Sequence record: CP071152.1
Source: a plasmid
Length of the DNA stretch: 64,000 nucleotides
Reading direction: 5' to 3' (one strand)
A model generated the notes under the pieces. That model ran no database searches, had not been told where the DNA came from, and saw only the letters and a program-made list of their open reading frames with translations. The stretch's first letter is position 1, and the number at the start of each line of letters is the position of its first letter. This document shows positions 42,528-63,114 of the stretch, piece after piece. Both the position numbers and the translations under genes were made by a program.

Positions 42528-43538
42528 CTACCTCTCACTAGTGAGGGGCGGCAGCGCATCAAGCGGTGAGCGCACTCCGGCACCGCCAACTTTCAGCACA
42601 TGCGTGTAAATCATCGTCGTAGAGACGTCGGAATGGCCGAGCAGATCCTGCACGGTTCGAATGTCGTAACCGCTGCGGAGCAAGGCCGTCGCGAACGAGT
42701 GGCGGAGGGTGTGCGGTGTGGCGGGCTTCGTGATGCCTGCTTGTTCTACGGCACGTTTGAAGGCGCGCTGAAAGGTCTGGTCATACATGTGATGGCGACG
42801 CACGACACCGCTCCGTGGATCGGTCGAATGCGTGTGCTGCGCAAAAACCCAGAACCACGGCCAGGAATGCCCGGCGCGCGGATACTTCCGCTCAAGGGCG
42901 TCGGGAAGCGCAACGCCGCTGCGGCCCTCGGCCTGGTCCCAGCCACCATGCCCGTGCACGCGACAGCTGCTCGCGCAGGCTGGGTGCCAAGCTCTCGGTA
43001 ACATCAAGGCCCGATCCTTGGAGCCCTTGCCCTCCCGCACGATGATCGTGCCGTGATCGAAATCCAGATCCTTGACCCGCAGTTGCAAACCCTCACTGAT
43101 CCGCATGCCCGTTCCATACAGAAGCTGGGCGAACAAACGATGCTCGCCTTCCAGAAAACCGAGGATGCGAACCACTTCATCCGGGGTCAGCACCACCGGC
43201 AAGCGCCGCGACGGCCGAGGTCTTCCGATCTCCTGAAGCCAGGGCAGATCCGTGCACAGCACCTTGCCGTAGAAGAACAGCAAGGCCGCCAATGCCTGAC
43301 GATGCGTGGAGACCGAAACCTTGCGCTCGTTCGCCAGCCAGGACAGAAATGCCTCGACTTCGCTGCTGCCCAAGGTTGCCGGGTGACGCACACCGTGGAA
43401 ACGGATGAAGGCACGAACCCAGTGGACATAAGCCTGTTCGGTTCGTAAGCTGTAATGCAAGTAGCGTATGCGCTCACGCAACTGGTCCAGAACCTTGACC
43501 GAACGCAGCGGTGGTAACGGCGCAGTGGCGGTTTTCAT
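42528..43538 (-). CDS. intI1: Class 1 integron integrase IntI1 (336 aa; a roughly 25-aa internal stretch is frame-shifted relative to the canonical sequence)
   Basis: The sequence matches IntI1 throughout, except that '[22 protein letters not shown]' replaces '[23 protein letters not shown]'. This indicates compensating indels. Confidence 0.9.
43423..43451 (+). promoter_or_regulatory. Integron cassette promoter Pc, weak variant (TGGACA-17-TAAGCT)
   Basis: The -35 is at 43423-43428 and the -10 at 43446-43451, inside intI1. Confidence 0.8.
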
Positions 43539-44381: not shown

Positions 44382-44511
44382 CCCTTCCATCGAGGGGGAC
44401 GTCCAAGGGCTGGCGCCCTTGGCCGCCCCTCATGTCAAACGTTGGGCGAACCCGGAGCCTCATTAATTGTTAGCCGTTAAAATTAAGCCCTTTACCAAAC
44501 CAATACTTATT

Positions 44512-45342
44512 ATGAAAAACACAATACATATCAACTTCGCTATTTTTTTAATAATTGCAAATATTATCTACAGCAGCGCCAGTGCATCAACAGATATCTC
44601 TACTGTTGCATCTCCATTATTTGAAGGAACTGAAGGTTGTTTTTTACTTTACGATGCATCCACAAACGCTGAAATTGCTCAATTCAATAAAGCAAAGTGT
44701 GCAACGCAAATGGCACCAGATTCAACTTTCAAGATCGCATTATCACTTATGGCATTTGATGCGGAAATAATAGATCAGAAAACCATATTCAAATGGGATA
44801 AAACCCCCAAAGGAATGGAGATCTGGAACAGCAATCATACACCAAAGACGTGGATGCAATTTTCTGTTGTTTGGGTTTCGCAAGAAATAACCCAAAAAAT
44901 TGGATTAAATAAAATCAAGAATTATCTCAAAGATTTTGATTATGGAAATCAAGACTTCTCTGGAGATAAAGAAAGAAACAACGGATTAACAGAAGCATGG
45001 CTCGAAAGTAGCTTAAAAATTTCACCAGAAGAACAAATTCAATTCCTGCGTAAAATTATTAATCACAATCTCCCAGTTAAAAACTCAGCCATAGAAAACA
45101 CCATAGAGAACATGTATCTACAAGATCTGGATAATAGTACAAAACTGTATGGGAAAACTGGTGCAGGATTCACAGCAAATAGAACCTTACAAAACGGATG
45201 GTTTGAAGGGTTTATTATAAGCAAATCAGGACATAAATATGTTTTTGTGTCCGCACTTACAGGAAACTTGGGGTCGAATTTAACATCAAGCATAAAAGCC
45301 AAGAAAAATGCGATCACCATTCTAAACACACTAAATTTATAA
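44512..45342 (+). CDS. blaOXA-1: Class D beta-lactamase OXA-1
   Basis: 276 aa. 'MKNTIHINFAIFLIIANIIYSSASAS...STFKIALSLMAFDAE...KTG' matches OXA-1 as recalled. Confidence 0.95.
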   Translation: MKNTIHINFAIFLIIANIIYSSASASTDISTVASPLFEGTEGCFLLYDASTNAEIAQFNKAKCATQMAPDSTFKIALSLMAFDAEIIDQKTIFKWDKTPKGMEIWNSNHTPKTWMQFSVVWVSQEITQKIGLNKIKNYLKDFDYGNQDFSGDKERNNGLTEAWLESSLKISPEEQIQFLRKIINHNLPVKNSAIENTIENMYLQDLDNSTKLYGKTGAGFTANRTLQNGWFEGFIISKSGHKYVFVSALTGNLGSNLTSSIKAKKNAITILNTLNL

Positions 45343-46597: not shown

Positions 46598-47417
46598 GGC
46601 ACTGTTGCAAATAGTCGGTGGTGATAAACTTATCATCCCCTTTTGCTGATGGAGCTGCACATGAACCCATTCAAAGGCCGGCATTTTCAGCGTGACATCA
46701 TTCTGTGGGCCGTACGCTGGTACTGCAAATACGGCATCAGTTACCGTGAGCTGCAGGAGATGCTGGCTGAACGCGGAGTGAATGTCGATCACTCCACGAT
46801 TTACCGCTGGGTTCAGCGTTATGCGCCTGAAATGGAAAAACGGCTGCGCTGGTACTGGCGTAACCCTTCCGATCTTTGCCCGTGGCACATGGATGAAACC
46901 TACGTGAAGGTCAATGGCCGCTGGGCGTATCTGTACCGGGCCGTCGACAGCCGGGGCCGCACTGTCGATTTTTATCTCTCCTCCCGTCGTAACAGCAAAG
47001 CTGCATACCGGTTTCTGGGTAAAATCCTCAACAACGTGAAGAAGTGGCAGATCCCGCGATTCATCAACACGGATAAAGCGCCCGCCTATGGTCGCGCGCT
47101 TGCTCTGCTCAAACGCGAAGGCCGGTGCCCGTCTGACGTTGAACACCGACAGATTAAGTACCGGAACAACGTGATTGAATGCGATCATGGCAAACTGAAA
47201 CGGATAATCGGCGCCACGCTGGGATTTAAATCCATGAAGACGGCTTACGCCACCATCAAAGGTATTGAGGTGATGCGTGCACTACGCAAAGGCCAGGCCT
47301 CAGCATTTTATTATGGTGATCCCCTGGGCGAAATGCGCCTGGTAAGCAGAGTTTTTGAAATGTAAGGCCTTTGAATAAGACAAAAGGCTGCCTCATCGCT
47401 AACTTTGCAACAGTGCC
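46598..47417 (+). mobile_element. IS26 (820 bp), intact
   Basis: A GGCACTGTTGCAAA 14-bp IR at each end. The tnp26 gene is at 46661..47365 (234 aa, 'MNPFKGRHFQRDIILWAVRWY'). Confidence 0.95.
46661..47365 (+). CDS. tnpA: IS26 transposase Tnp26
   Basis: An exact-looking match to Tnp26. Confidence 0.95.
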   Translation: MNPFKGRHFQRDIILWAVRWYCKYGISYRELQEMLAERGVNVDHSTIYRWVQRYAPEMEKRLRWYWRNPSDLCPWHMDETYVKVNGRWAYLYRAVDSRGRTVDFYLSSRRNSKAAYRFLGKILNNVKKWQIPRFINTDKAPAYGRALALLKREGRCPSDVEHRQIKYRNNVIECDHGKLKRIIGATLGFKSMKTAYATIKGIEVMRALRKGQASAFYYGDPLGEMRLVSRVFEM

Positions 47418-47554
47418 AATTTATGAGTAAAGGATTATGTCCACGATAAGCACCTGGGTCGATTCCTGGGAGGCGGCCATGAGGGTAGGGAAGCGCCGTC
47501 CCGTCAAGTCAGCGTAATGCTCTGCCAGTGTTACAACCAATTAACCAATTCTGA

Positions 47555-48370
47555 TTAGAAAAACTCATCGAGCATCAAATGAAACTGCAATTTATTCATA
47601 TCAGGATTATCAATACCATATTTTTGAAAAAGCCGTTTCTGTAATGAAGGAGAAAACTCACCGAGGCAGTTCCATAGGATGGCAAGATCCTGGTATCGGT
47701 CTGCGATTCCGACTCGTCCAACATCAATACAACCTATTAATTTCCCCTCGTCAAAAATAAGGTTATCAAGTGAGAAATCACCATGAGTGACGACTGAATC
47801 CGGTGAGAATGGCAAAAGCTTATGCATTTCTTTCCAGACTTGTTCAACAGGCCAGCCATTACGCTCGTCATCAAAATCACTCGCATCAACCAAACCGTTA
47901 TTCATTCGTGATTGCGCCTGAGCGAGACGAAATACGCGATCGCTGTTAAAAGGACAATTACAAACAGGAATCGAATGCAACCGGCGCAGGAACACTGCCA
48001 GCGCATCAACAATATTTTCACCTGAATCAGGATATTCTTCTAATACCTGGAATGCTGTTTTCCCGGGGATCGCAGTGGTGAGTAACCATGCATCATCAGG
48101 AGTACGGATAAAATGCTTGATGGTCGGAAGAGGCATAAATTCCGTCAGCCAGTTTAGTCTGACCATCTCATCTGTAACATCATTGGCAACGCTACCTTTG
48201 CCATGTTTCAGAAACAACTCTGGCGCATCGGGCTTCCCATACAATCGATAGATTGTCGCACCTGATTGCCCGACATTATCGCGAGCCCATTTATACCCAT
48301 ATAAATCAGCATCCATGTTGGAATTTAATCGCGGCCTCGAGCAAGACGTTTCCCGTTGAATATGGCTCAT
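47555..48370 (-). CDS. aph(3')-Ia: Aminoglycoside 3'-phosphotransferase APH(3')-Ia
   Basis: 271 aa. 'MSHIQRETSCSRPRLNSNMDADLYGYKWARDNVGQSGATIYRLYGKPDAPELFLKHGKG' matches AphA1. Confidence 0.95.
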   Translation of the reverse strand: MSHIQRETSCSRPRLNSNMDADLYGYKWARDNVGQSGATIYRLYGKPDAPELFLKHGKGSVANDVTDEMVRLNWLTEFMPLPTIKHFIRTPDDAWLLTTAIPGKTAFQVLEEYPDSGENIVDALAVFLRRLHSIPVCNCPFNSDRVFRLAQAQSRMNNGLVDASDFDDERNGWPVEQVWKEMHKLLPFSPDSVVTHGDFSLDNLIFDEGKLIGCIDVGRVGIADRYQDLAILWNCLGEFSPSLQKRLFQKYGIDNPDMNKLQFHLMLDEFF

Positions 48371-52254: not shown

Positions 52255-53100
52255 ATGAAAACCGCCACTGCGCCGTTACCACCGCTGCGTTCGGTCAAGG
52301 TTCTGGACCAGTTGCGTGAGCGCATACGCTACTTGCATTACAGTTTACGAACCGAACAGGCTTATGTCCACTGGGTTCGTGCCTTCATCCGTTTCCACGG
52401 TGTGCGTCACCCGGCAACCTTGGGCAGCAGCGAAGTCGAGGCATTTCTGTCCTGGCTGGCGAACGAGCGCAAGGTTTCGGTCTCCACGCATCGTCAGGCA
52501 TTGGCGGCCTTGCTGTTCTTCTACGGCAAGGTGCTGTGCACGGATCTGCCCTGGCTTCAGGAGATCGGAAGACCTCGGCCGTCGCGGCGCTTGCCGGTGG
52601 TGCTGACCCCGGATGAAGTGGTTCGCATCCTCGGTTTTCTGGAAGGCGAGCATCGTTTGTTCGCCCAGCTTCTGTATGGAACGGGCATGCGGATCAGTGA
52701 GGGTTTGCAACTGCTGGCGGCACTGGTCCCGCCACCTCGCGCGCATCTCACCCGCTTCCACGGCGTATTCGCCCCGAATGCAAACCTGCGTGCGCAGCTG
52801 ACGCCATCGGGGCGCGGCAAGCGGCCTGCGAGCGATGCAGTGCCGGTGGACGTCAGCGCCCACGACGAGCCGCGCAGCCCCGAGCAGAAGCGCCGTGCGA
52901 TGAGCTGGGCGCAACGGCTCAAGCGGGTCTTTTCCATCGACATCACCACCTGCGCCCACTGCGGCGGCGCGGTGCGGATCGTCGCCAGCATCGAGGAACC
53001 CACCGCCATCCGCGCCATCCTCGCCCACTTCGAGAAGCACGGCGCGCTGGAGCAAGCGCACTACCGGCCCGCAGCGCGCGCGCCGCCGCCGGCCGCGTGA
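52255..53100 (+). pseudogene. Chimeric ORF: intI1 5' 143 codons fused to the 3' 138 codons of an ISCR (IS91-family) transposase
   Basis: '[10 protein letters not shown]...[10 protein letters not shown]' is IntI1. '|[23 protein letters not shown]...[13 protein letters not shown]' is the ISCR transposase C-terminus. The junction is near 52710. Confidence 0.85.
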
Positions 53101-53346
53101 CGAGGTGCCGGCCACACAGCCGGCAGCCAAGCCAGAGTCGGATCCGATGCGGCCACGACCCCGCAGGGCTGCGCTCGGCCCTGTGCCGGGATTCGGTGAG
53201 AAATGGCTACGCACTGAGCCGCTGCGCGGCCCCGCGATGTCGAAAACCCACGCATGAACCCCCGATCTGTGCCCGATCTGTGCCCAAAGCGGCGCTTGCG
53301 CGGCCGCTTCCTACCCGCCAGACTCGCAAAAAAGGGCGGTTGAACT
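53101..53346 (+). mobile_element. ISCR oriIS-type terminal region (ends ...GGTTGAACTTCCTATACCC), copy 1 of 3
   Basis: It recurs nearly identically at 58099-58355 and 62771-63025, in each case just after the 3' end of the transposase gene. Confidence 0.75.
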
Positions 53347-53536
53347 TCCTATACCCAATGGTGCACGCGTCGAGGATCGATCCAAGTTCGAGATCAACGA
53401 GATTGCCGTCCTTGACGCGGTATTCGCGGTCATAGCCCTTGGCGATGAACGACTGGACTGCTTCTAGAACGTCGGTCACTTCGGATGTCATGCGCGCACT
53501 TTCATATCGAGTTGGATTGGACGCGCTTCCGCACAA
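53343..53536 (-). pseudogene. Small ORF (MTSEVTDVLEAVQSFIAKGYDREYRVKDGNLVDLELGSILDAC...) truncated by the ISCR end
   Basis: The native reading frame runs into the oriIS sequence at 53346. Confidence 0.3.
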
Positions 53537-53585: not shown

Positions 53586-54554
53586 TCATAGCCACTTGGA
53601 CTTCTTGAAGCGCACGAACAGGATGAGGCTGGACACCGCGATCAGCCCGAGCACGACGAAGTAGCCATAGGTCGTGTTCAGCTCCGGCATGTGCTTAAAG
53701 TTCATGCCGTATATTCCAGCGATCGCCGTCGGGACTGCCAGTATTGCCGCCCAGGCCGCGAGCTGGCGGGTGACCACACCGATCCTTTGCGCTTCCAGAA
53801 GGCTGCTGGCCTCAAAGACCGTGGACAGGACAAGCAGGAGGCCGTCGACCATGGACTGCACGCGGTGGACATGGTCCGCGACGTCGTGGAAATATGGTGT
53901 CATTTCGGCGCTGATGCAGGGAAAGTGGCCGCGAACGAGCTTTCGCACCAGCTCGGCCATAGCCCTGAGCGTGCGCTGGAACCGCGTGAGTTCGGACCTT
54001 AGTTCGAAGATTCGCGCCACCTCTTCTGGCCCGAGGAAGTCGTGCAGCGACCGTCGTTCCATGGCCAGGACGTCGTCCTCGATCATTTCGAAGATGGGCA
54101 GATACTGGTCGACCACGCGGTGCAGGATCGCATGCAGCACATAGTCGACACCCTTGCCGAACTGCGTCGGCGATGCCTCGAGTTGCGCCCGAAGTTTGCC
54201 CAGCGCTCCGGCATTGCCGTGCCGCACGGTGATAAGGTGATTGTGACCGGTGAAGATCGCCATCTTGCCGTAGCTGATCCGGTCGCCGACCAGCTCGGCG
54301 GTCTGCGCGACGACGTACAACTCATCGTTGTAGACCTCGAGCTTGGGCGGGCACAGCGGGTGCATCGCGTTGTCGATCGCCAACGGATGAAGATTATATG
54401 TCCTTTGGATCGCGAGTAGTTCCTCGGGGGTGGGTTCGCTAAGCGCGATCCAGCAGAAGCCCGAGCGACTCTCGCCCAACTTGACGTGCTCATCGAGCGC
54501 GATTTCGCGAACTCGCTTGCCTTCGTTGTAATAATAGGCGGCGATGATGCTCAT
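53586..54554 (-). CDS. corA: CorA magnesium/cobalt transporter
   Basis: The 'GMNF' motif and two C-terminal transmembrane helices. 'MSIIAAYYYNEGKRV'. The start overlaps the gst stop. Confidence 0.85.
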   Translation of the reverse strand: MSIIAAYYYNEGKRVREIALDEHVKLGESRSGFCWIALSEPTPEELLAIQRTYNLHPLAIDNAMHPLCPPKLEVYNDELYVVAQTAELVGDRISYGKMAIFTGHNHLITVRHGNAGALGKLRAQLEASPTQFGKGVDYVLHAILHRVVDQYLPIFEMIEDDVLAMERRSLHDFLGPEEVARIFELRSELTRFQRTLRAMAELVRKLVRGHFPCISAEMTPYFHDVADHVHRVQSMVDGLLLVLSTVFEASSLLEAQRIGVVTRQLAAWAAILAVPTAIAGIYGMNFKHMPELNTTYGYFVVLGLIAVSSLILFVRFKKSKWL

Positions 54555-55255
54555 GCTGGCCTCGCGGGAATGTGGAGGCCACGCTGGACGGCCGGTCGAG
54601 CCAGCCCGCGTCCAAGCCATGCGCGGACGTTCGAAAAGCTGCTGAGGCCAAGGATGTCACCCGCAGCGTAGAATTCCACCAGCGCATTCACCCAGCCGAG
54701 CGTCGCGATGTCCGCGATCGAATAGTCGTCGACGATCCAGTCGCGGCCTTCCAGCCGGCGATCCAGAATCCCCAGCAGACGCGTGGATTCGTCGATAAAG
54801 CGCTGTTGCGGCCGCTTGTCCTCATAGTCCTTGCCGCCAAATCGCAGGAAGAAGCCGAGCTGACCGAACATCGGCCCGATGGCCGACATCTGAAAGAACA
54901 CCCAGGCCAGAGTCTCGTATCGTTGGGTGGGTGTGGTTGAGATGAACTGGCCAGTCTTTTCGGCCAGATAGACGAGGATCGCACCGGATTCCCATAAGGC
55001 GATGGGTCTACCGTCAGGGCCAGCCGGATCGATGATCGCCGGTATGCGTCCGTTCGGGTTCAGCGACACGAACGCCGGATCCTTCGACTCGTTGTTCGAG
55101 ATGTCGATCAGGTGGGGCTCGTACGCCAGGCCAGTCTCCTCAAGCATGATCGAGACCTTGACGCCATTGGGCGTAGGGGCTGCGTAGAGTTGCAGGCGAT
55201 CGGGATGAGATGCCGGCCAGCGCTGCGTGATCGGAAAGGACGAGAGGTCTGGCAT
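54551..55255 (-). CDS. Glutathione S-transferase (YfcG/YghU-like)
   Basis: A thioredoxin-like N-terminal domain 'LQLYAAPTPNGVKVSIMLEE' and a GST C-terminal domain. The start is uncertain; the ORF extends to 55351. Confidence 0.75.
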   Translation of the reverse strand: MPDLSSFPITQRWPASHPDRLQLYAAPTPNGVKVSIMLEETGLAYEPHLIDISNNESKDPAFVSLNPNGRIPAIIDPAGPDGRPIALWESGAILVYLAEKTGQFISTTPTQRYETLAWVFFQMSAIGPMFGQLGFFLRFGGKDYEDKRPQQRFIDESTRLLGILDRRLEGRDWIVDDYSIADIATLGWVNALVEFYAAGDILGLSSFSNVRAWLGRGLARPAVQRGLHIPARPA

Positions 55256-55395
55256 AAATCTGCGATCCTGGTGTTGCGATGGCGACTGACTGGAACGAGC
55301 CGTCACTCTGAAGTAGGGTTCGATGACCGCGTCGCTGAACGACGCGGTCACGAAGATTGCGGACCGGACCGGCGCAGTGGCAACGGCAGTGAAGC

Positions 55396-55935
55396 CTATT
55401 CCGCCGCGGTCTCGGCCGCTGGCTGTACGTCGTCAACCTTTTGGCGCTTCGGAAGCACCCAGCCGGGACGGACGAAGTGGCAGGTGTAGCCGCCCGGGCG
55501 CTTCTCCAGATAATCCTGGTGATCGGGCTCGGCCTCCCAGAACTCGCCGACCGGCTGGACCTCGGTCACCACTTTGCCATCCCACAGCCCCGAGGCATCC
55601 ACATCGGCGATCGTATCCTCGGCGACGCGCTTCTGCTCCTCGTCGACATAATAGATGCCCGACCGGTAGGAGAGCCCACGATCATTGCCCTGGCGGTTCA
55701 GCGTCGTCGGATCGTGGATCTGGAAGAAGAATTCCAGGATGTTCCGGTAGCTCGTCACTGTCGGGTCGAAGACAATCTCGATCCCCTCGGCATGCGTGCC
55801 GTGATTACGATACGTGGCGTTCGGAATATCGCCGCCCGTGTAACCCACACGGGTCGAGATGATGCCGGGCCGCTTGCGGATCAGATCCTGCATGCCCCAG
55901 AAACATCCTCCTGCGAGAACAGCGCGCTGATGCAT
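55396..55935 (-). CDS. msrA: Peptide methionine sulfoxide reductase MsrA
   Basis: The active-site motif 'GCFWG' in '[12 protein letters not shown]'. Confidence 0.9.
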
Positions 55936-55936
55936 G

Positions 55937-56392
55937 TTAAGCCTCCTCTACTTGATCGAGATATTCACCGTATCCCTCGGACTCCATCTCGTCGCGCGGG
56001 ATGAAGCGAAGGGACGCTGAGTTGATGCAGTACCGCAGACCGCCGCGGTCGGAAGGACCATCGGGGAACACATGGCCGAGATGACTGTCTGCGTGTACTG
56101 ACCTGACCTCCGTCCGGACCATGCCGTGTGCGCTGTCCCGCACCTCGTTCACGTTTGCCGAAACGATCGGCTTGGTGAAGCTGGGCCAGCCAGTACCCGA
56201 ATCGAACTTGTCCGTCGAAGCGAACAGTGGCTCTCCCGACACTATGTCGACGTAGATGCCAGGCTCCTTGTTGTCGTTGTACTCGCCCGTGAAGGGCCTT
56301 TCGGTCCCCGACTCCTGGGTAATCCGGCGTTGCTCGGGGGTCAGGCGGTCAACTGCTGTCTGTGACTTTTCAAACTTCATGATAGTCTCCAA
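55937..56392 (-). CDS. msrB: Peptide methionine sulfoxide reductase MsrB
   Basis: The SelR domain, with '[11 protein letters not shown]' and 'CGWPSF'-like motifs. Confidence 0.9.
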
Positions 56393-56627
56393 TAATTAAT
56401 CTAGAGCCGACATTCCCCAAGTGGCCTGCCGCTTGACTTCAAGATCGCCTGATTTTGCTCGCTGGGCAAGCGTTTTTCGCCCCGAGCGGTGTCTGTCGTC
56501 GCGCAAACGGCCGAAGTCGGGTGGATCAAGCCTCGAACCCGCAGCATTCTGGCCCGGCAGAGCCGCTTTTCCGCGCGGCAGACGGACCTGTCCTGCCGCT
56601 TTCGTTCAGCTTGGGCATGGATCGTGG

Positions 56628-56845
56628 TCATGCGCATGACGGAGGCGTTCGAAGACGGCGGATGGCGGCAAGGACGGCCCGCACCATCGGGCCGGTGACG
56701 GCGACCTCGGCCAACTGGAAGGTAATGGCGCGGGCGTGGCGGACGACGCGGGCGCCGATCTTGATCAGCTTGAGTTGCAGGCTGGTCAACGACCAGTCCG
56801 CCATGGCCTCGGGCAGTTCGATGCAGCGCAGGAAGGAGAGGCTGG
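56628..56845 (-). pseudogene. C-terminal fragment of a DDE transposase (IS4/IS5-like 'LQLKLIKIGARVVRHARAITFQLAEVAV'), cut by the ISCR junction
   Basis: The ORF 56628..56900 diverges from ISCR sequence upstream of about 56845. Confidence 0.5.
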
Positions 56846-58355
56846 TGGCGTATTCCTGCAAGAAGCGCGGGCTGTGCCCGAGCTGCGGCGCACGGCGCAT
56901 GGCCGAGTCGGCGCGGCATCTGGTGGACGAGGTGTTCGGCCCGCGGCCGGTGCGGCAATGGGTGCTGAGTTTCCCCTACCCGTTGCGCTTCCTGTTCGCC
57001 AGCAAGCCGGAGGCCATCAGCCCGGTGCTGGGCATCGTGCATCGTGTGATCGCCGGTTGGCTTGCCGATCAGGCCGGCGTGCCGCGGGATACGGCGCAAT
57101 GCGGCGTGGTGACCCTGATCCAGCGCTTCGGCAGCGCGCTGAATCTCAACATCCACTTCCACATGCTGTGGCTCGACGGCGTGTACGACGCGAACGTCGA
57201 GCCGCCGCGGCGCAAGCCGCGCCTGCGCCGCGCCCGTGCCCCCACCTCTGCGCAACTGACGCAGCTCGCCAACACCATCGCGCATCGCGTCTGCCGGCAC
57301 CTGACGCGCAAAGGCTGGCTGGAAGGCGAAGACGAATCCGTGTTCCTGTCCGACAGCGCGGGTAGCGACGACGGCATGGATGGGCTGCGGATGAGTTCGA
57401 TGACCTACCGCATCGCCACCGGTCGCGACGCTGGCCGCAAGGTCGTCACGCTGCAAACGCTACCCGGCGATGCGGGTTCTCTGGACGCCGACGCCGGCAA
57501 GGTCGGCGGCTTCTCGCTGCATGCCGGCGTGGCCGCGGAAGCACACGAAAGCCACAAGCTCGAAAAGCTGTGCCGCTACATCACGCGCCCGGCGATCAGC
57601 GAGCAGCGGCTGTCGATCTCACCGCAGGGTAGGGTGCGGTATCAGCTCAAGACGCCGTGGCGAAATGGGACCACGCATGTCGAATGGGATGCGGTGGACT
57701 TCATCGCCAAGCTGGCGGCGCTGGTCCCGCCACCGCGCGCCCACCTGACCCGCTTCCACGGGGTGTTTGCCCCGAACGCCGCCCTGCGCGCACAGTTGAC
57801 GCCATCGGGGCGCGGCAGGCGGCCTGCGGGCGATGCGGCGCCGGTTGACGCAAGCGCCCACGACGAGCCGCGCAGCCCCGAGCAGAAGCGCCGTGCGATG
57901 AGCTGGGCGCAACGGCTCAAGCGGGTCTTTTCCATCGACGTCACCACCTGCGCCCACTGCGGCGGCGCGGTGCGGATCGTCGCCAGCATCGAAGACCCCA
58001 AGGCCATTCGCGCCATCCTCGCCCACTTCGAGAAACACCGCGCGCTGGAGCAAGCGCACTACCGGCCCGCAGCGCGCGCGCCGCCGCCGGCCGCGTGACG
58101 AGGTGCCGGCCACACAGCCGGCAGCCAAGCCAGAGTCCGATCCGATGCGGCCACGACCCCGCAGGGCTGCGCTCGGCCCTGTGCCGGGATTCGGTGAGAA
58201 ATGGCTACGCACTGAGCCGCTGCGTGGCCCCGCGATGTCGAAAACCCACGCATGAACCCCCGATCTGTGCCCGATCTGTGCCCAAAGCGGCGCTTGCGCG
58301 GCCGCTTCCTACCCGCCAGACTCGCCAAAAAGGGCGGTTGAACTTCCTATACCCC
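56845..58355 (+). mobile_element. ISCR3/ISCR27-like element, 5'-truncated (transposase from about codon 125 onward, plus the oriIS end)
   Basis: The transposase ORF 56455..58098 matches the full copy from 'RLVAYSCKKRGLCPSCGARRM' onward. The HUH/Y2 motifs are 'NIHFHMLWLDGVY'. Confidence 0.85.
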
Positions 58356-58907
58356 GACCAGCGGCGCACCGGTTTGCTGGATCGCCTCGGCAACATTTGC
58401 GAGATTGAGCCCGCCAGCCAGCCCCCACGGCAAAGCACTGCGATAGCCGGCCAGTAGCGACCAGTCGAAAGCCAGCCCCATCCCGCCGGGCAGCGCGCCT
58501 TTGGGCGTCTTGGCGTCGAACAGGATCAGATCCGCCGCCCCGGCATAGGCGGCGGCGCGCGCTAAATCGCTGGCGCTGGCGATGGGCAGCGCCTTCCACA
58601 CCGGTTTGCCGAACCGGGCGCGAAACTGGGCAACACGTTCGGGCGTTTCGGAGCCATGGAGTTGCAACACATCGAGCCGTGCCGCCGCCAGGGCCTCGGC
58701 AATTGTCGCATCGTCTGCATCGACAAACAGGCCAACCATTGCGATCCGCCCCGATGCACGCGCCGTCAGAGCACCGGCGACATTCGGCGTCACCGCACGA
58801 GGCGACGCTGGATAGAACACCAGCCCGGCGTAGTCCACCCGCGCCGCAATGGTCGCGTCGAGCGCCTCGGGCGTGCTGATCCCGCAAATCTTGATCCTGG
58901 CGGGCAT
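58347..58907 (-). CDS. trpF: Phosphoribosylanthranilate isomerase TrpF; its last two codons and stop are supplied by the ISCR terminus (trpFΔ)
   Basis: The PRAI fold 'MPARIKICGISTPEALD...'. The stop TAG lies within 'TTCCTATACCCC'. Confidence 0.8.
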   Translation of the reverse strand: MPARIKICGISTPEALDATIAARVDYAGLVFYPASPRAVTPNVAGALTARASGRIAMVGLFVDADDATIAEALAAARLDVLQLHGSETPERVAQFRARFGKPVWKALPIASASDLARAAAYAGAADLILFDAKTPKGALPGGMGLAFDWSLLAGYRSALPWGLAGGLNLANVAEAIQQTGAPLVGV

Positions 58908-58911
58908 CAGC

Positions 58912-59277
58912 TCAGTCGGGGTTCTGGATCAGCCGCACCAGCGTGCAGTCGGGATCAATCAGGTAGCCGATCCTCAGGCCGCTCGCCTCCAGTTGCGGCG
59001 CTTTGAAGCGCGGCCAACCGGTGCTTTTCTCCTCTACCCCAGCCGCATGGACCAGCGCGACAATGGCATCCAGATCGTCAAGCCGCAGACAGCAGCCGAA
59101 CGAACTCGTCGCCGGATCAAGGTCAGGATAGGGGAAGAACTCAAGCTGCAAGCCGCCGCGTTGCAGGATCATCCAGCCGCGATCCTTCCAGCTCGTCGCA
59201 AACCCCAACTTGGCGTAAAACGCCTCGGTCACATCGAAATCGCGCGAGGGCAGATTGGGTGTGACGTGGTCAGCCAT
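58912..59277 (-). CDS. ble: Bleomycin-binding (glyoxalase-fold) protein homologous to, but divergent from, BleMBL
   Basis: 121 aa. The N-terminal 'MADHVTPNLPSRDFD' matches BleMBL; the remainder is only moderately similar. Confidence 0.8.
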   Translation of the reverse strand: MADHVTPNLPSRDFDVTEAFYAKLGFATSWKDRGWMILQRGGLQLEFFPYPDLDPATSSFGCCLRLDDLDAIVALVHAAGVEEKSTGWPRFKAPQLEASGLRIGYLIDPDCTLVRLIQNPD

Positions 59278-59280
59278 GGC

Positions 59281-60084
59281 TCAGCGCAGCTTGTCGGCCA
59301 TCCGCGCGGTGTGGGTGATCGCGGCGCGGCTGTCAGGCGCGGAATGGCTCATCGCAATCGTGTTCGCCTTCGGAAAAGCCGCACCAAATGCGCGCGCCGA
59401 GGCGGCATAGCGTTCGGTGTCGGCATCGCCGAGATTGCCGAGCGACTTGGCCTTGCTGTCTTTGATCAGGCAGCCGCCAAAGGCGATGTCGGTGCCATCG
59501 ATCCCGACGGTGATATTGTCACTGGTGTGGCCGGGGCCGGGATAGAACACCCTGAGCGGCCCGAAATTGGGCGCGGTCGCCGGGTCGACCCAGCCGTTGG
59601 CGGCGAAGGTCAGGCTGTGCTGCGCCGCCGTCATCCCCTCTTGCGGGGCAAGCTGGTTCGACAAGGCATTGGCGTAAGTGGGGATTGCCTCCGCGTGCAG
59701 CGCGCCCATCCCGCCCATCTTGTCCTGATGCGCGTGGGTGACCACCGCCAGCGCCACCGGCAGATTGATCTCTTGCTTAATCCAGTTGAGGATCTGGCTG
59801 GTCTGATCATCGGTCCAGGCGGTATCGACCAACAGCACCCGTTCGCCATCCTTGACGATCAGCCCGTTGGAAGAAACCGCGCCAAAGCCCGGCACATCCA
59901 TGAACGAGGTATGTTGCCACACATTGGGCGCCAGCTGGCGGAACACCAGATCGCCGAAGCGCTGGTCACCCTTATCCACCTGCTCACCAATCGACGGGCG
60001 GATCTCGCCGGGGATGCAGCCGGGCAGCGCCATGGCCAAAGCCAGCGGCAAGCCAATCCGCGCGATGTTCGATTTCGTAATCAT
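59281..60084 (-). CDS. Subclass B1 metallo-beta-lactamase, NDM-like (about 90% identical to NDM-1 in the mature region, with a different non-chimeric N-terminus)
   Basis: It is collinear with NDM-1 from 'PGEIRP' to 'ARMADKLR'. The zinc ligands are conserved (HAHQD, GGC, SHS). About 25 substitutions, and the first 22 residues are unrelated ([23 protein letters not shown]). Confidence 0.9.
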
Positions 60085-60099
60085 AATGTCGCCTCAATC

Positions 60100-60261
60100 T
60101 CAGAGCTGAATCATGGATGGAGTCGTATTCAGAATGCCGGGCATTGCTGGAACGACAGGAAGGTAGATATCCATCGCCAGGGAAGCGAGGATGTCAAAGG
60201 GTGCCATTAGCAGCAGAGCTGCCGGCAGGGTATAAGCCCACGCGGGGCGTGTGGTGGTCAT
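60100..60261 (-). pseudogene. 53-codon N-terminal fragment of a Bcr/CflA-type MFS efflux transporter ending 15 bp upstream of the MBL start
   Basis: 'MTTTRPAWAYTLPAALLLMAPFDILASLAMDIYLPVVPAMPGILNTTPSMIQL*' includes the MFS 'D(M/I)YLPxxP' signature. Confidence 0.5.
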
Positions 60262-60639
60262 GACGAATCAACCGCTCGATTAAGGAATCCGGGCGGCGTC
60301 TGCTCGTCAGCAATCAAAAAGGATTGGTCTTACAGAACGCCGCAACAACAATGTTTGTCGTTGCGGCTTACTTGTCTGCGGTAATACTGGCTCCCATGCC
60401 CTGACCTCATATTTGGAAATTTGTGATTATGATCTTATCCGATCATCCTTCGTATCGCAATGCGTAGGCCTGCCAACCGGGAGGTAGGAGACCTAGAGGC
60501 CTATTCCTCTCTGCCGCCCCAACCGCCACGACATCGATCCGCCCTGCACAACGCCCATGACCTCGCGGCCGAGATGGCGGTCGATGACCGGCCGCCACGG
60601 AACGAGGGTGAACTCATGGGATTTTTCGACCACGGCGAA

Positions 60640-60985
60640 CTTGCCGCTCGATAGCTGCACGGTGCCGGTGAACTTGCGCGCGATGGAGGCGCCGCTGCGC
60701 GAAATCGTGGCCAACGCCGGCGAGGAGCCGTCGGTGGTGCTGAACAAGGTGAAGGACGGCCAGGGCAACTACGGCTACAACGCGGCCACCGGCGAATACG
60801 TGGACATGGTGGACGCCGGCATCCTGGACCCGACCAAGGTCACCCGCACCGCGCTGCAGAACGCGGCGTCCATCGCCGGCCTCATGATCACCACCGAAGC
60901 GATGGTGGCCGAGGCTCCGAAGAAGGAAGAGCCGGCACCTGCGCACGGCGGCGGCATGGGCGGCATGGGCGGTATGGACTTCTAA
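60640..60985 (+). pseudogene. groEL: groEL 3' fragment (C-terminal ~115 aa ending [11 protein letters not shown]), 5'-truncated
   Basis: '[80 protein letters not shown]'. Confidence 0.85.
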
Positions 60986-63025
60986 GTCCGCCCATCGCGC
61001 CAGTGGTGGCGCGAAGGCGTCCGCGCAGCGGGCGAACCGCGCCCTCCAGCAAGCAAGCGTGACCACGAAGCCCGGCCTTTTGCCGGGCTTCGTGCTTTCT
61101 GGCGTCCGACGTGGGAAACGCCCTGTCTTAAGCGCGGCGATGTCCGATACGAAAACCGGAAAAGGCCGATATGAACCGGCCGGGGCGGGCGCAAGCCTGA
61201 GCAGCCATTCCCTGCACCGGAGTGTTTCGTGCCGCGCCTCGCCGCGACCGTGTCGCAGCTGCAGGATGCCGTGGCGCACGCAACGTCGCCGGCAGCGCAT
61301 CTGCCCACGGCTCGCTATGCGCCTCACCGTCCCGAGCGCACGCTGCTGTATTCGCTGGTGCAGGCGCATTGGCCGGACTTTCTCGCGCGCCGTGAGGTAG
61401 AAGACCGCCCGCTGCCCGAGTATGTGCGCGAGGAGTTCGAGACCTACCTGCGCTGCGGCGTGCTCGAGCACGGTTTCCTGCGCGTGGTGTGCGAGCACTG
61501 CCGTGCAGAGAGGCTGGTGGCGTATTCCTGCAAGAAGCGCGGGCTGTGCCCGAGCTGCGGCGCACGGCGCATGGCCGAGTCGGCGCGGCATCTGGTGGAG
61601 GAGGTGTTCGGCCCGCGGCCGGTGCGGCAATGGGTGCTGAGTTTCCCGTACCCGTTGCGCTTCCTGTTCGCCAGCAAGCCAGAAGCCATTGGCCCGGTGC
61701 TGGGCATCGTGCAGCGCGTGATCGCCGGCTGGTTGGCCGATCAAGTCGGCGTCGACCACGCCAGCGCGCAATGCGGCGTGGTGACCCTGATCCAGCGCTT
61801 CGGCAGCGCGCTGAATCTCAACATCCACTTCCACATGCTGTGGCTCGACGGCGTGTACGAGGACACCACCGAGCGTCCGCAGCGCAAGCCGCGCCTGCAC
61901 CGCACCCGTGCGCCCACATCGGCGCAACTGACGGAACTGGCCAACACCATCGCGCATCGCGTGTGCCGGCACCTGTCGCGCCGCGGCTGGCTCGAAGGCG
62001 AAGACGAATCCGTGTTCCTGTCCGACAGCGCGGGTAGCGACGACGGCATGGATGGGCTGCGGATGAGTTCGATGACCTACCGCATCGCCACCGGTCGCGA
62101 CGCTGGCCGCAAGGTCGTCACGCTGCAAACATTGCCCGGTGACGCAGGCTCGCTGGAGGGCGATGCCGGCAAGGTCGGCGGCTTCTCGCTGCATGCCGGC
62201 GTGGCCGCGGAAGCACACGAGAGCCACAAGCTCGAAAAGCTGTGCCGCTACATCACGCGCCCGGCGATCAGCGAGCAGCGGCTATCGATCTCACCGCAGG
62301 GAAGGGTGCGGTATCAGCTCAAGACGCCATGGCGCAATGGCACCACCCATGTCGAATGGGATGCGGTCGACTTCATCGCCAAGCTGGCGGCACTGGTCCC
62401 GCCACCTCGCGCGCATCTCACCCGCTTCCACGGCGTATTCGCCCCGAATGCAAACCTGCGCGCGCAGGTGACGCCATCGGGGCGCGGCAAGCGGCCTGCG
62501 GGCGATGCGGTGCCGGTGGACGTCAGCGCCCACGACGAGCCGCGCAGCCCCGAGCAGAAGCGCCGTGCGATGAGCTGGGCGCAACGGCTCAAGCGGGTCT
62601 TTTCCATCGACGTCACCACCTGCGCCCACTGCGGCGGCGCGGTACGGATCGTCGCCAGCATCGAGGAACCCAAAACCATCCGCGCCATCCTCGCCCACTT
62701 CGAGAAGCACGGCGCGCTGGAGCAAGCGCACTACCGGCCCGCAGCGCGCGCGCCGCCGCCGGCCGCGTGACGAGGTGCCGGCCACACAGCCGGCAGCCAA
62801 GCCAGAGTCCGATCCGATGCGGCCACGACCCCGCAGGGCTGCGCTCGGCCCTGTGCCGGGATTCGGTGAGAAATGGCTACGCACTGAGCCGTTGCGCGGC
62901 CCCGCGATGTCGAAAACCCACGCATGAACCCCCGATCTGTGCCCGATCTGTGCCCAAAGCGGCGCTTGCGCGGCCGCTTCCTACCCGCCAGACTCGCCAA
63001 AAAGGGCGGTTGAACTTCCTATACC
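60986..63025 (+). mobile_element. ISCR3/ISCR27-like rolling-circle element, full copy (terIS side, transposase, oriIS)
   Basis: A 513-aa transposase at 61229..62770. The oriIS-type end lies at 62771-63025. The groELΔ abuts the 5' (terIS) side. Confidence 0.85.
61229..62770 (+). CDS. ISCR (IS91-family HUH/Y2) transposase, 513 aa
   Basis: 'CEHCRAERLVAYSCKKRGLCPSCGARRM' is the zinc-binding N-terminus. 'NIHFHMLWLDGVY' is the HUH motif. Confidence 0.9.
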   Translation: MPRLAATVSQLQDAVAHATSPAAHLPTARYAPHRPERTLLYSLVQAHWPDFLARREVEDRPLPEYVREEFETYLRCGVLEHGFLRVVCEHCRAERLVAYSCKKRGLCPSCGARRMAESARHLVEEVFGPRPVRQWVLSFPYPLRFLFASKPEAIGPVLGIVQRVIAGWLADQVGVDHASAQCGVVTLIQRFGSALNLNIHFHMLWLDGVYEDTTERPQRKPRLHRTRAPTSAQLTELANTIAHRVCRHLSRRGWLEGEDESVFLSDSAGSDDGMDGLRMSSMTYRIATGRDAGRKVVTLQTLPGDAGSLEGDAGKVGGFSLHAGVAAEAHESHKLEKLCRYITRPAISEQRLSISPQGRVRYQLKTPWRNGTTHVEWDAVDFIAKLAALVPPPRAHLTRFHGVFAPNANLRAQVTPSGRGKRPAGDAVPVDVSAHDEPRSPEQKRRAMSWAQRLKRVFSIDVTTCAHCGGAVRIVASIEEPKTIRAILAHFEKHGALEQAHYRPAARAPPPAA

Positions 63026-63114
63026 CACGCCGCAGCGTCGTGCATCAGCCGCACAACCTCGTCGATATCACCCGAGCAGGCGACCCGAACGTTCGGAGGC
63101 TCCTCGCTGTCCAT
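63026..63114 (-). pseudogene. orf5: orf5Δ: first 29 codons of the 3'-CS orf5, truncated at the ISCR end
   Basis: Identical to 51089-51175. Confidence 0.8.

Follow-up and report, generated by a model that had tools for sequence, protein, structure and literature searches.

Genes of the blaAFM-1 module

The window analysed here is a stretch of 64,000 nucleotides of the plasmid record CP071152.1. The list of its ORFs contains three co-oriented ORFs on the minus strand between 58347 and 60084, exactly where an earlier reading of the letters without database searches (the sequence-only reading) had placed them. The first ORF (59281–60084) encodes a subclass B1 metallo-β-lactamase (MBL) of 267 amino acids. 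It scores 638.1 bits with the NCBIfam blaAFM model (NF033736, cut-off 590) over positions 1–267 of 267, while its score with the blaNDM model (NF000259) is 541.2 bits, below the cut-off of 580. The protein has no amino-acid difference from AFM-1 (WP_069953510.1), and the protein cluster named AFM-1 (P0001) matches it with 100% identity and 100% coverage. Thus, the expectation that no exact allele would be found was wrong. At the DNA level, the 2,501-bp stretch 58000–60500 has exact (100%) counterparts in at least eight plasmids with a blaAFM-1 annotation; 23 records match 80% or more of its length at 99.8–100% identity. The DNA is also 100% identical to records that carry the CDS WP_069953510.1 or an AMRFinderPlus blaAFM-1 assignment at 100%. 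It was concluded, with a probability of about 0.97, that 58347–60084 holds blaAFM-1–bleMBL–truncated trpF, a mobile carbapenemase module already known, and, equally firmly, that the module lies among tandemly arrayed rolling-circle elements of the ISCR27 family, adjoining class 1 integron remnants in an Aeromonas-type multiresistance plasmid. The locus is already catalogued as blaAFM-1 in a published mobile-element setting and is not a new relative of NDM.

The B1 zinc ligands H117, H119, H186, D121, C205, and H247 are invariant in an alignment with NDM-1 and 10 natural homologues, and the Zn1 His-His-His and Zn2 Asp-Cys-His sets of the subclass are both present. AFM-1 is probably membrane-anchored like NDM-1, because its sequence starts with a lipoprotein leader of 22 residues followed by Cys23 of the lipobox LPGC. 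The identical protein has been described as a di-zinc subclass B1 enzyme that hydrolyses penicillins, cephalosporins, and carbapenems, with cloning, MIC, and Carba NP data (PMC8075316, PMC10189940). Since the carbapenem MICs of Aeromonas hydrophila SS332 are just 1 μg/mL (PMC8075316), the expression or activity of AFM-1 is host-dependent. The blaAFM-1 gene was deposited in 2018 and has been characterised since 2021, with the same flanks (PMC8075316, PMC10189940, PMC9602987). The sequence-only reading had announced a notable finding, which is not supported, given the NCBI model and these three papers. AFM-1 is a catalogued, clinically reported carbapenemase with a published ISCR context, and the locus changes nothing as a finding; it is relevant for surveillance only, as another AFM-1-bearing region of an Aeromonas-type multiresistance plasmid.

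The second ORF (58912–59277) is bleMBL, encoding a bleomycin-binding protein of 121 amino acids, which reaches 277.9 bits with the NCBIfam Ble-MBL model (NF012202, cut-off 250). It shares 118 of 121 amino acids (97.5%) with the NDM-linked Ble-MBL, at 89.5% nucleotide identity and an omega of 0.026, and so the statement that this ble is much more divergent than BleMBL was mistaken. The third ORF (58347–58907) is a 3′-truncated trpF gene (phosphoribosylanthranilate isomerase) of 186 codons, which covers profile positions 2–187 of 219. Aligned over 184 amino acids, its product and the NDM-linked TrpF are 87.6% identical. The homology ends after codon 184, beyond which the gene enters an exact ISCR27-type oriIS, GCGGTTGAACTTCCTATACC, at 58334–58353; the final two codons and the stop codon are supplied by the ISCR end. 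The clipping of trpF by an ISCR element had been correctly recognised from the letters. The identical 186-residue product occurs in all nine distinct AFM-1 contexts.

ISCR elements and flanking genes

Three exact copies of the ISCR27 oriIS lie on the plus strand of the window, while none is expected by chance. The intact ISCR27-family transposase gene (61229–62770, plus strand) matches the NCBIfam ISCR_clade_Ia model over its full length with 1134.8 bits, and its oriIS (63006–63025) begins 236 bp past the stop at 62770. This gene has been published as ISCR29, ISCR19-1, or ISCR27n, and its length of 1542 bp agrees with the published one (PMC8075316). The middle element has a 5′-truncated ISCR (IS91-like) transposase gene (56455–58098, plus strand; 950.6 bits), which covers profile positions 87–509 of 509 and has been published as ISCR19-2 or ISCR27-like (PMC8075316). 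Both transposases pass the clade Ia cut-off of 925 bits (Y2-type IS91-like transposases). The oriIS of the middle element is the one that clips trpF; it matches the ISCR27 oriIS in PMC8894482 exactly and begins, at 58334, 236 bp past the transposase stop at 58098. The minus strand at 53586–56392 carries the passenger block of the middle element, corA–yfcG (glutathione S-transferase)–msrA–msrB; the same genes are annotated in pAN70-1 and pPA30_1, which have this region in identical form. The third oriIS (53336–53355) belongs to a truncated ISCR element. An 846-bp ORF at 52255–53100 (plus strand) joins the first 154 codons of intI1 to 129 codons from the end of an ISCR transposase gene; in its product, the NCBIfam integron integrase occupies residues 1–154, and ISCR_clade_Ia profile positions 381–509 fall on residues 153–281. 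This fusion remnant has been published as ΔISCR19-3.

On the upstream side of blaAFM-1, a floR-like fragment (60103–60379, minus strand) matches the floR genes of over 2,000 plasmids with 87% nucleotide identity. It comprises about 118 bp of the floR upstream region and the first 53 codons (ORF 60100–60261), to which the NCBIfam FloR model aligns at positions 1–53 of 404. The stub ends at a TGA made by the junction, whose base-level position was set by alignment to the floR gene of pCCK1900. A fragment of a DUF3363/virD2-like gene, the normal neighbour of floR, follows at 60506–60681 (plus strand) with about 90% nucleotide identity to the DUF3363 genes of floR plasmids. Next to it lies a groL 3′ remnant (60675–60985, plus strand) with a GroEL-type GGM tail in its translation, published as ΔgroL. 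From this remnant through the intact ISCR element (60675–63027), the window shows about 91% identity with the end of the NDM contexts that carries groL and ISCR27.

The published order is ISCR–groL remnant–floR remnant–blaAFM–ble–trpF remnant–ISCR–msrB-msrA-yfcG-corA, ending in a truncated ISCR element, and the window has the same order. It matches the published module of AFM-1 (Alcaligenes faecalis metallo-β-lactamase 1) gene for gene with no module difference; neither the protein nor 2.5 kb of DNA departs from the ISCR29-blaAFM unit or floR-blaAFM-bleMBL-trpF module. The AFM-1 records differ solely in the surrounding plasmid. Here, the plasmid backbone is of the Aeromonas type, and IS26-flanked aph(3′)-Ia and blaOXA-1 lie to the left of the module, as described for pSS332-218k. 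No native context of AFM-1 was found among the distinct neighbourhoods on record, since all nine share the same core of ISCR, floR, and truncated trpF.

The bla, ble, and trpF genes are separated by 3–4 bp and are probably co-transcribed. The floR stub stops 15 nt ahead of the blaAFM start. Transcription would most likely enter via the retained floR-like upstream region and run through the 53-codon stub. A promoter scan found no consensus sigma-70 promoter in 58250–60750, and thus the transcription route of blaAFM remains a proposal. The intact ISCR element is oriented to mobilise the DNA on its left, blaAFM included. As has also been published, its replication would start at the oriIS at 63006–63025 and run leftwards past a missing or weak terminus, taking along the groL remnant, floR stub, blaAFM, ble, and trpF remnant. 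The orientation and the presence of the identical module in many replicons point to rolling-circle transposition of the DNA adjoining the ISCR element.

Comparison with the NDM module

The bla-ble-trpF block aligns collinearly with blaNDM-ble-trpF, with about 86% of the nucleotides identical. It resembles the blaNDM-bleMBL-trpF module of Tn125 in gene order, tight spacing, and encoded proteins (MBL 85%, or 90% past the lipobox Cys; Ble 97.5%; TrpF 87.6%). Both modules have the zinc ligands, the lipobox Cys, and a linked ISCR27-family element with a groL remnant. Over the full protein, the MBL and NDM-14 differ at 40 positions (85.0% identity), 24 of them past the lipobox Cys; against NDM-1 the latter number is 25, the additional one being D130 of NDM-1 (G127 of AFM). 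Solved structures of NDM-1 are about 86% identical to the AFM protein. Collinearity with NDM, conserved zinc ligands, and about 25 substitutions in the mature protein were all correctly anticipated. The leader before Cys23 is strongly diverged, with 50% nucleotide identity across 16 alignable codons. It had been called an unrelated leader of 22 residues; the length and the divergence are right, but "unrelated" is overstated, as the leaders align weakly from AFM residue 7 and NDM residue 10 and have the lipobox in common.

The boundaries of the two modules differ. The NDM module has an aphA6/ISAba125 fusion and a full trpF gene, whereas the AFM module adjoins floR-like DNA 18 bp ahead of the ATG at one end and is cut by an oriIS within trpF at the other. 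In pNDM-JN01, blaNDM-14 and aphA6 are identical upstream and over the first 20 nt of the CDS; blaAFM has none of this, and the chimeric 5′ end of NDM is absent here, as had been stated. Thus, the AFM module lacks ISAba125 and the aphA6-derived first six codons, and has instead the floR-like stub and an 18-bp pyrF remnant upstream of bla. While NDM has the full trpF followed by dsbD-cutA-groES-groEL, the AFM trpF is cut at codon 184. Neither the bracketing by ISAba125 nor the dsbD-cutA-groES-groEL-ISCR27 series past trpF that characterises Tn125 is found at the AFM locus. A check of the flanks against Tn125, proposed with the sequence-only reading, bore out the difference: similarity to NDM plasmids is restricted to 58355–60028, and the groL-ISCR27-like piece (91%) lies on the other side of bla, upstream of blaAFM and in the opposite orientation compared with the NDM module.

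Between AFM and NDM, dS is 0.56–0.70 and omega is 0.03–0.11 for bla, ble, and trpF, which indicates an old divergence under strong purifying selection and not drift on plasmids. These values, the differing junctions, the lack of the aphA6 chimera, and the pyrF remnant support the view that AFM was captured separately from NDM, probably from a relative of the NDM source. The sequence-only reading had offered an independent capture or a pre-chimera ancestral form. A separate capture and a native 5′ end agree with the present results, but AFM is a sister lineage of NDM and not literally its pre-chimera ancestor.

The pyrF remnant and the source of the module

The 18 bp upstream of blaAFM (60085–60102, minus strand) were identified by translation as the 3′ end of the pyrF gene of the progenitor, namely its last six codons (E-I-E-A-T-L-stop), with the TGA overlapping the blaAFM ATG. 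Of the 19 Sphingomonadales PyrF C-termini compared, 18 end in IEATL* and two in EIEATL*. The string IEATL* is unique in the six frames of the window and was absent from 300 shuffles; the chance of its occurrence in this fixed slot is about 1e-5 × 0.18. All 17 natural loci whose MBL has 49% identity or more (Sphingomonadales) show the order purB-pyrF-MBL-trpF-trpB, sometimes including ble; none of 27 more distant loci has it.

Chromosomal B1 MBLs of Sphingomonadales/Erythrobacteraceae, such as ElBla2 of Erythrobacter litoralis HTCC2594, resemble AFM-1 in the short lipoprotein leader and the C-x-P-GEIRPS motif. Their loci also have a pyrF stop codon overlapping the MBL start codon, trpF downstream, and sometimes ble in between. 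On the other hand, these MBLs are only 49–58% identical, chromosomal, and not associated with ISCR elements, and the placing of ble with respect to the MBL gene is not constant; the order MBL-ble-(orf)-trpF was found in Pontixanthobacter sp. CEM42 alone among the natural loci. The best natural Ble matches (75–77%) come from Parerythrobacter aurantius, where ble lies in the same pyrF-trpF interval but upstream of the MBL gene, and from short contigs without an MBL. No natural MBL closer to AFM than 52–58% was found, which means that the actual donor species is unsampled. A search of 5.8 billion proteins for a third lineage between AFM/NDM and the natural enzymes of about 58% returned matches of 67–92% that were all frameshifted NDM. 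Two 1.2-kb contigs of Halioglobus and Zhongshania (82–83%; L036 and L037) proved to be NDM with ambiguous bases beside vector-like sequence.

Might the locus be something other than a known module captured separately? An undescribed NDM-family lineage or allele would agree with a protein that is below the NDM family cut-off and 85–86% identical to NDM, but the exact match to AFM-1 in DNA and protein in many records refutes it, as do a dedicated NCBI family model and several papers from 2021 onwards, and it is highly improbable. That a real blaNDM locus was altered by sequencing or consensus errors is even less probable. Public data do contain NDM sequences full of errors, as the frameshifted intermediate matches and the ambiguous bases of L036 and L037 illustrate. 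The AFM locus, however, is free of frameshifts, and its exact sequence recurs in independent, complete replicons (plasmids and chromosomes) of six genera. Counted over the mature coding region, 80 of its differences from NDM are synonymous and 28 non-synonymous, a synonymous share of about 75% that errors would not produce. The advice to confirm that the differences are not read errors is answered by these same facts.

It is very unlikely, if less so than the two preceding explanations, that the mobile AFM module derives from that of blaNDM, or that of blaNDM from AFM, through divergence or recombination on plasmids. Both modules are tied to ISCR27-family elements, with groL remnants about 91% identical, and the final 96 nt of ble are 98% identical to the NDM-linked ble, which could hint at a recombination patch. 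Nevertheless, dS is about 0.6 for all three genes, far above what decades on plasmids would allow. AFM keeps the pyrF remnant and the native start and NDM keeps the full trpF, each without the other's, and therefore neither module is derivable from the other.

Since 2009–2012, the source organism of blaNDM has been described as "undefined". The 18-bp pyrF fossil and a synteny confined to the closest natural homologues suggest, tentatively and at somewhat less than even odds, that the whole NDM/AFM lineage came from the pyrF-trpF interval of an unsampled Sphingomonadales species and not from a Xanthomonas-like one, with AFM-1 keeping its native start and leader, unlike NDM. The bla-ble-trpF core of AFM itself is probably a slice of this chromosomal interval, captured in an event distinct from the one that yielded blaNDM. 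It counts against this origin that, where the best natural TrpF matches occur (70–76%; Novosphingobium- or Croceicoccus-like), the locus is pyrF-SIMPL-trpF and has no MBL gene. The pyrF-remnant argument was not found in the literature searched, which did not extend to Zheng et al. 2011, and it may already exist. Its possible importance as a side observation is modest. AFM samples the ancestral locus that it has in common with NDM a second time, independently and with one native boundary intact. If the Sphingomonadales origin is true, the hunt for the donor is narrowed to Sphingomonadales with bla-ble between pyrF and trpF, an arrangement that provides a bait for PCR and metagenomic searches.

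A known blaAFM-1 module

Three minus-strand ORFs are tightly packed across 58347-60084, exactly the coordinates that an earlier sequence-only reading had given: a metallo-beta-lactamase (MBL) gene (59281-60084; 267 aa), a glyoxalase-fold ble gene (58912-59277; 121 aa), and a trpF gene (58347-58907; 186 aa). The 2,501-bp query 58000-60500 was found, at 100% identity, in at least eight plasmids of Alcaligenes, Comamonas, and Pseudomonas species, all of which are annotated with 'subclass B1 metallo-beta-lactamase AFM-1', bleMBL, and trpF. The AFM-2, -3, and -4 records are 99.9% identical to the query, while the match to NDM plasmids is restricted to 58355-60028 (86%). The MBL scores 638.1 bits with the NCBI AFM model (cut-off 590) and 541.2 bits with the NDM model (cut-off 580), and is identical to the AFM-1 cluster of a 5.8-billion-protein collection. 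The annotated matching records carry WP_069953510.1, reported by AMRFinderPlus as blaAFM-1 at 100%. Thus, the MBL is the already known AFM-1, for which the first deposit dates from 2018 and descriptions are given in PMC8075316 (2021), PMC10189940, and PMC9602987. The sequence-only reading was largely accurate as an observation, but the novelty that it claimed for the locus was not borne out.

The ISCR27 oriIS (GCGGTTGAACTTCCTATACC, as quoted in PMC8894482) occurs in three exact copies, at 53336, 58334, and 63006, where none is expected by chance. The second and third are each located 236 bp past the stop codon of a plus-strand ISCR transposase gene, 5′-truncated (56455-58098) and intact (61229-62770), respectively. 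Along the plus strand, an 846-bp intI1::ISCR fusion ORF (52255-53100, plus strand) and the first oriIS come before corA-yfcG-msrA-msrB and the truncated ISCR element, whose oriIS, the second one, truncates trpF at codon 184. To the right of this cut, ble and blaAFM-1 are followed by a unique 18-bp segment (60085-60102) and by a 53-codon floR-like stub with about 118 bp of upstream DNA (60103-60379, minus strand; 87% identity to floR). Next come a fragment resembling DUF3363/virD2, the 3′ remnant of groL together with the intact ISCR element (60675-63027), the third oriIS, and sul1. The module is the same as the published 'ISCR29-blaAFM unit' with an ISCR-msrB-msrA-yfcG-corA insertion (PMC8075316, PMC10189940, and PMC9602987). 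An identical core and the 186-codon trpF recur in all nine distinct AFM-1 contexts on record; therefore, a single assembly event was ancestral to every known copy.

The fusion ORF, which is in print as a truncated ISCR transposase (delta-ISCR19-3), joins the first 154 intI1 codons in frame to the last 129 ISCR transposase codons. Nucleotide identity between the floR piece and the common floR, present on more than 2,000 plasmids, is only about 87%; the piece therefore originated in a divergent floR relative rather than in the widespread allele.

Evidence for independent capture of AFM and NDM

The three genes were aligned with the blaNDM-14 locus of pNDM-JN01. The MBLs are 85.0% identical in amino acids (40 differences) and 85.3% in nucleotides of the mature part. 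There are 24 differences past the lipobox Cys, or 25 against NDM-1, in agreement with the 'about 25 substitutions' counted from the sequence, and the zinc ligands are invariant, as had been noted. The 22-residue leader was also correctly delimited, although calling it unrelated was an overstatement; it aligns weakly from AFM residue 7 and shares the lipobox, while the strong divergence stays. TrpF is 87.6% identical over 184 residues (84.4% in nucleotides) with no match beyond, and the clipping of trpF by an ISCR end was rightly recognized. On the other hand, Ble had been thought to be much more divergent than BleMBL, which is wrong: the two are 97.5% identical with only three differences (89.5% in nucleotides). 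The two ble genes are unevenly similar in nucleotides: identity is 90.6% over the first half, drops to 78.9% over the middle 90 nt, and rises to 97.9% over the final 96 nt (58912-59007). Strong constraint or an old recombination patch could account for this unevenness.

Read errors are excluded as the cause of the differences from NDM, since the identical sequence occurs in many independent assemblies and 80 of the approximately 108 differences in the mature MBL region are synonymous. All three genes have a dS of 0.56-0.70 and an omega of 0.03-0.11, a pattern that fits orthologous loci of two related species rather than plasmid-borne drift. The junctions also differ. The 5′ end of the NDM gene is identical to that of aphA6, upstream and through CDS nucleotide 20, while that of the AFM gene is not. 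The NDM module keeps the whole trpF, while the AFM module has retained native DNA ahead of its start codon. Thus, neither module can be derived from the other. In Tn125-type NDM contexts, the groL remnant and the ISCR element lie on the other side of bla in the opposite orientation. Since the groL-ISCR segments are nevertheless about 91% identical, sister elements of the ISCR27 family, both with a groL stub already in place, took part in the assembly of the two modules. The earlier interpretation as an independent capture from a relative of the NDM progenitor therefore stands on dS, omega, and the junctions.

No third lineage beside AFM and NDM was found in the data searched, and apparent intermediates were rejected as frameshifted or ambiguous NDM sequences. 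Two 1.2-kb contigs from marine-isolate assemblies, of Halioglobus japonicus BC5_1 (L036) and Zhongshania aliphaticivorans BC9_2A (L037), have a blaNDM with ambiguous bases, 95% identical to NDM-1, and continue into vector-like sequence. Both contigs almost certainly stem from laboratory contamination of public genomes.

A putative pyrF remnant and its donor

Between the floR junction and the ATG of blaAFM, the 18 bp at 60085-60102 (minus strand) encode exactly 'EIEATL*', in the frame whose TGA stop codon overlaps with that ATG. This string is unique in the six frames of the window and was absent from 300 shuffles; its probability in the fixed slot is about 1e-5 x 0.18. Because the 18 bp read as the conserved PyrF end of Sphingomonadales, blaAFM-1 appears to have kept both its native start codon and the end of the donor pyrF.

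Is this arrangement found in natural loci? The closest natural MBLs (49-58% identity) are all from Sphingomonadales, namely Pontixanthobacter, Erythrobacter, Parerythrobacter, Alteripontixanthobacter, Pseudopontixanthobacter, Blastomonas, and related MAGs; the donor genome itself is absent among the sampled loci. In species-representative genomes, purB-pyrF-MBL-trpF-trpB lie on one strand at 17 of the 17 closest loci and at none of the 27 loci whose MBLs are more distant (47% or less). The stop codon of pyrF overlaps with the MBL start codon (ATGA or GTGA) at most natural loci, and 18 of 19 PyrF proteins end with 'IEATL*', two of them with 'EIEATL*'. Three loci have a ble homologue (63-75% identity) inside the pyrF-trpF interval, and the order in Pontixanthobacter sp. 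CEM42 is MBL-ble-(orf)-trpF. The nearest natural TrpF relatives (70-76%) belong to Novosphingobium- or Croceicoccus-like loci without an MBL. The closest cultured genome overall is that of Parerythrobacter aurantius (Ble 75%, TrpF 66%, and MBL 52-54%).

These results point to a Sphingomonadales-type pyrF-trpF interval as the source of the NDM/AFM lineage, which would make the bla-ble-trpF block, in AFM and NDM alike, a slice of it. In the literature examined, the NDM progenitor was left undefined or a Xanthomonas-like source was favoured from groEL. The pyrF remnant and the pyrF-MBL-trpF synteny were not found in the literature searched. Both the pyrF fossil and the restricted range of the synteny deserve a short follow-up, since they make the long-standing question of NDM origin more directly testable.

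Expression, mobility, and plasmid surroundings

The identical AFM-1 protein hydrolyses beta-lactams including carbapenems, with host-dependent MICs (PMC8075316 and PMC10189940), and is predicted to be processed as a lipoprotein at LPGC. The bla-ble-trpF′ genes are probably co-transcribed, with spacers of 3-4 bp that are conserved between AFM and NDM. No consensus promoter was detected in 58250-60750. Transcription may enter from the floR-like upstream region through the floR stub, whose stop codon lies 15 nt ahead of the blaAFM ATG. Judging from its orientation, the intact ISCR element would replicate leftwards from its own oriIS and carry the module along.

To the left, positions 1-48000 are those of a conjugative multiresistance plasmid of Aeromonas type. 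Besides traN and pilus genes, this stretch carries TnAs1, a mer operon, msr(E), the integrase gene of a class 1 integron (42528-43538), blaOXA-1 (44467-45342), and an IS26-flanked aph(3')-Ia (46643-48370). Compared by description, it fits the published blaAFM-1 plasmid pSS332-218k of A. hydrophila.
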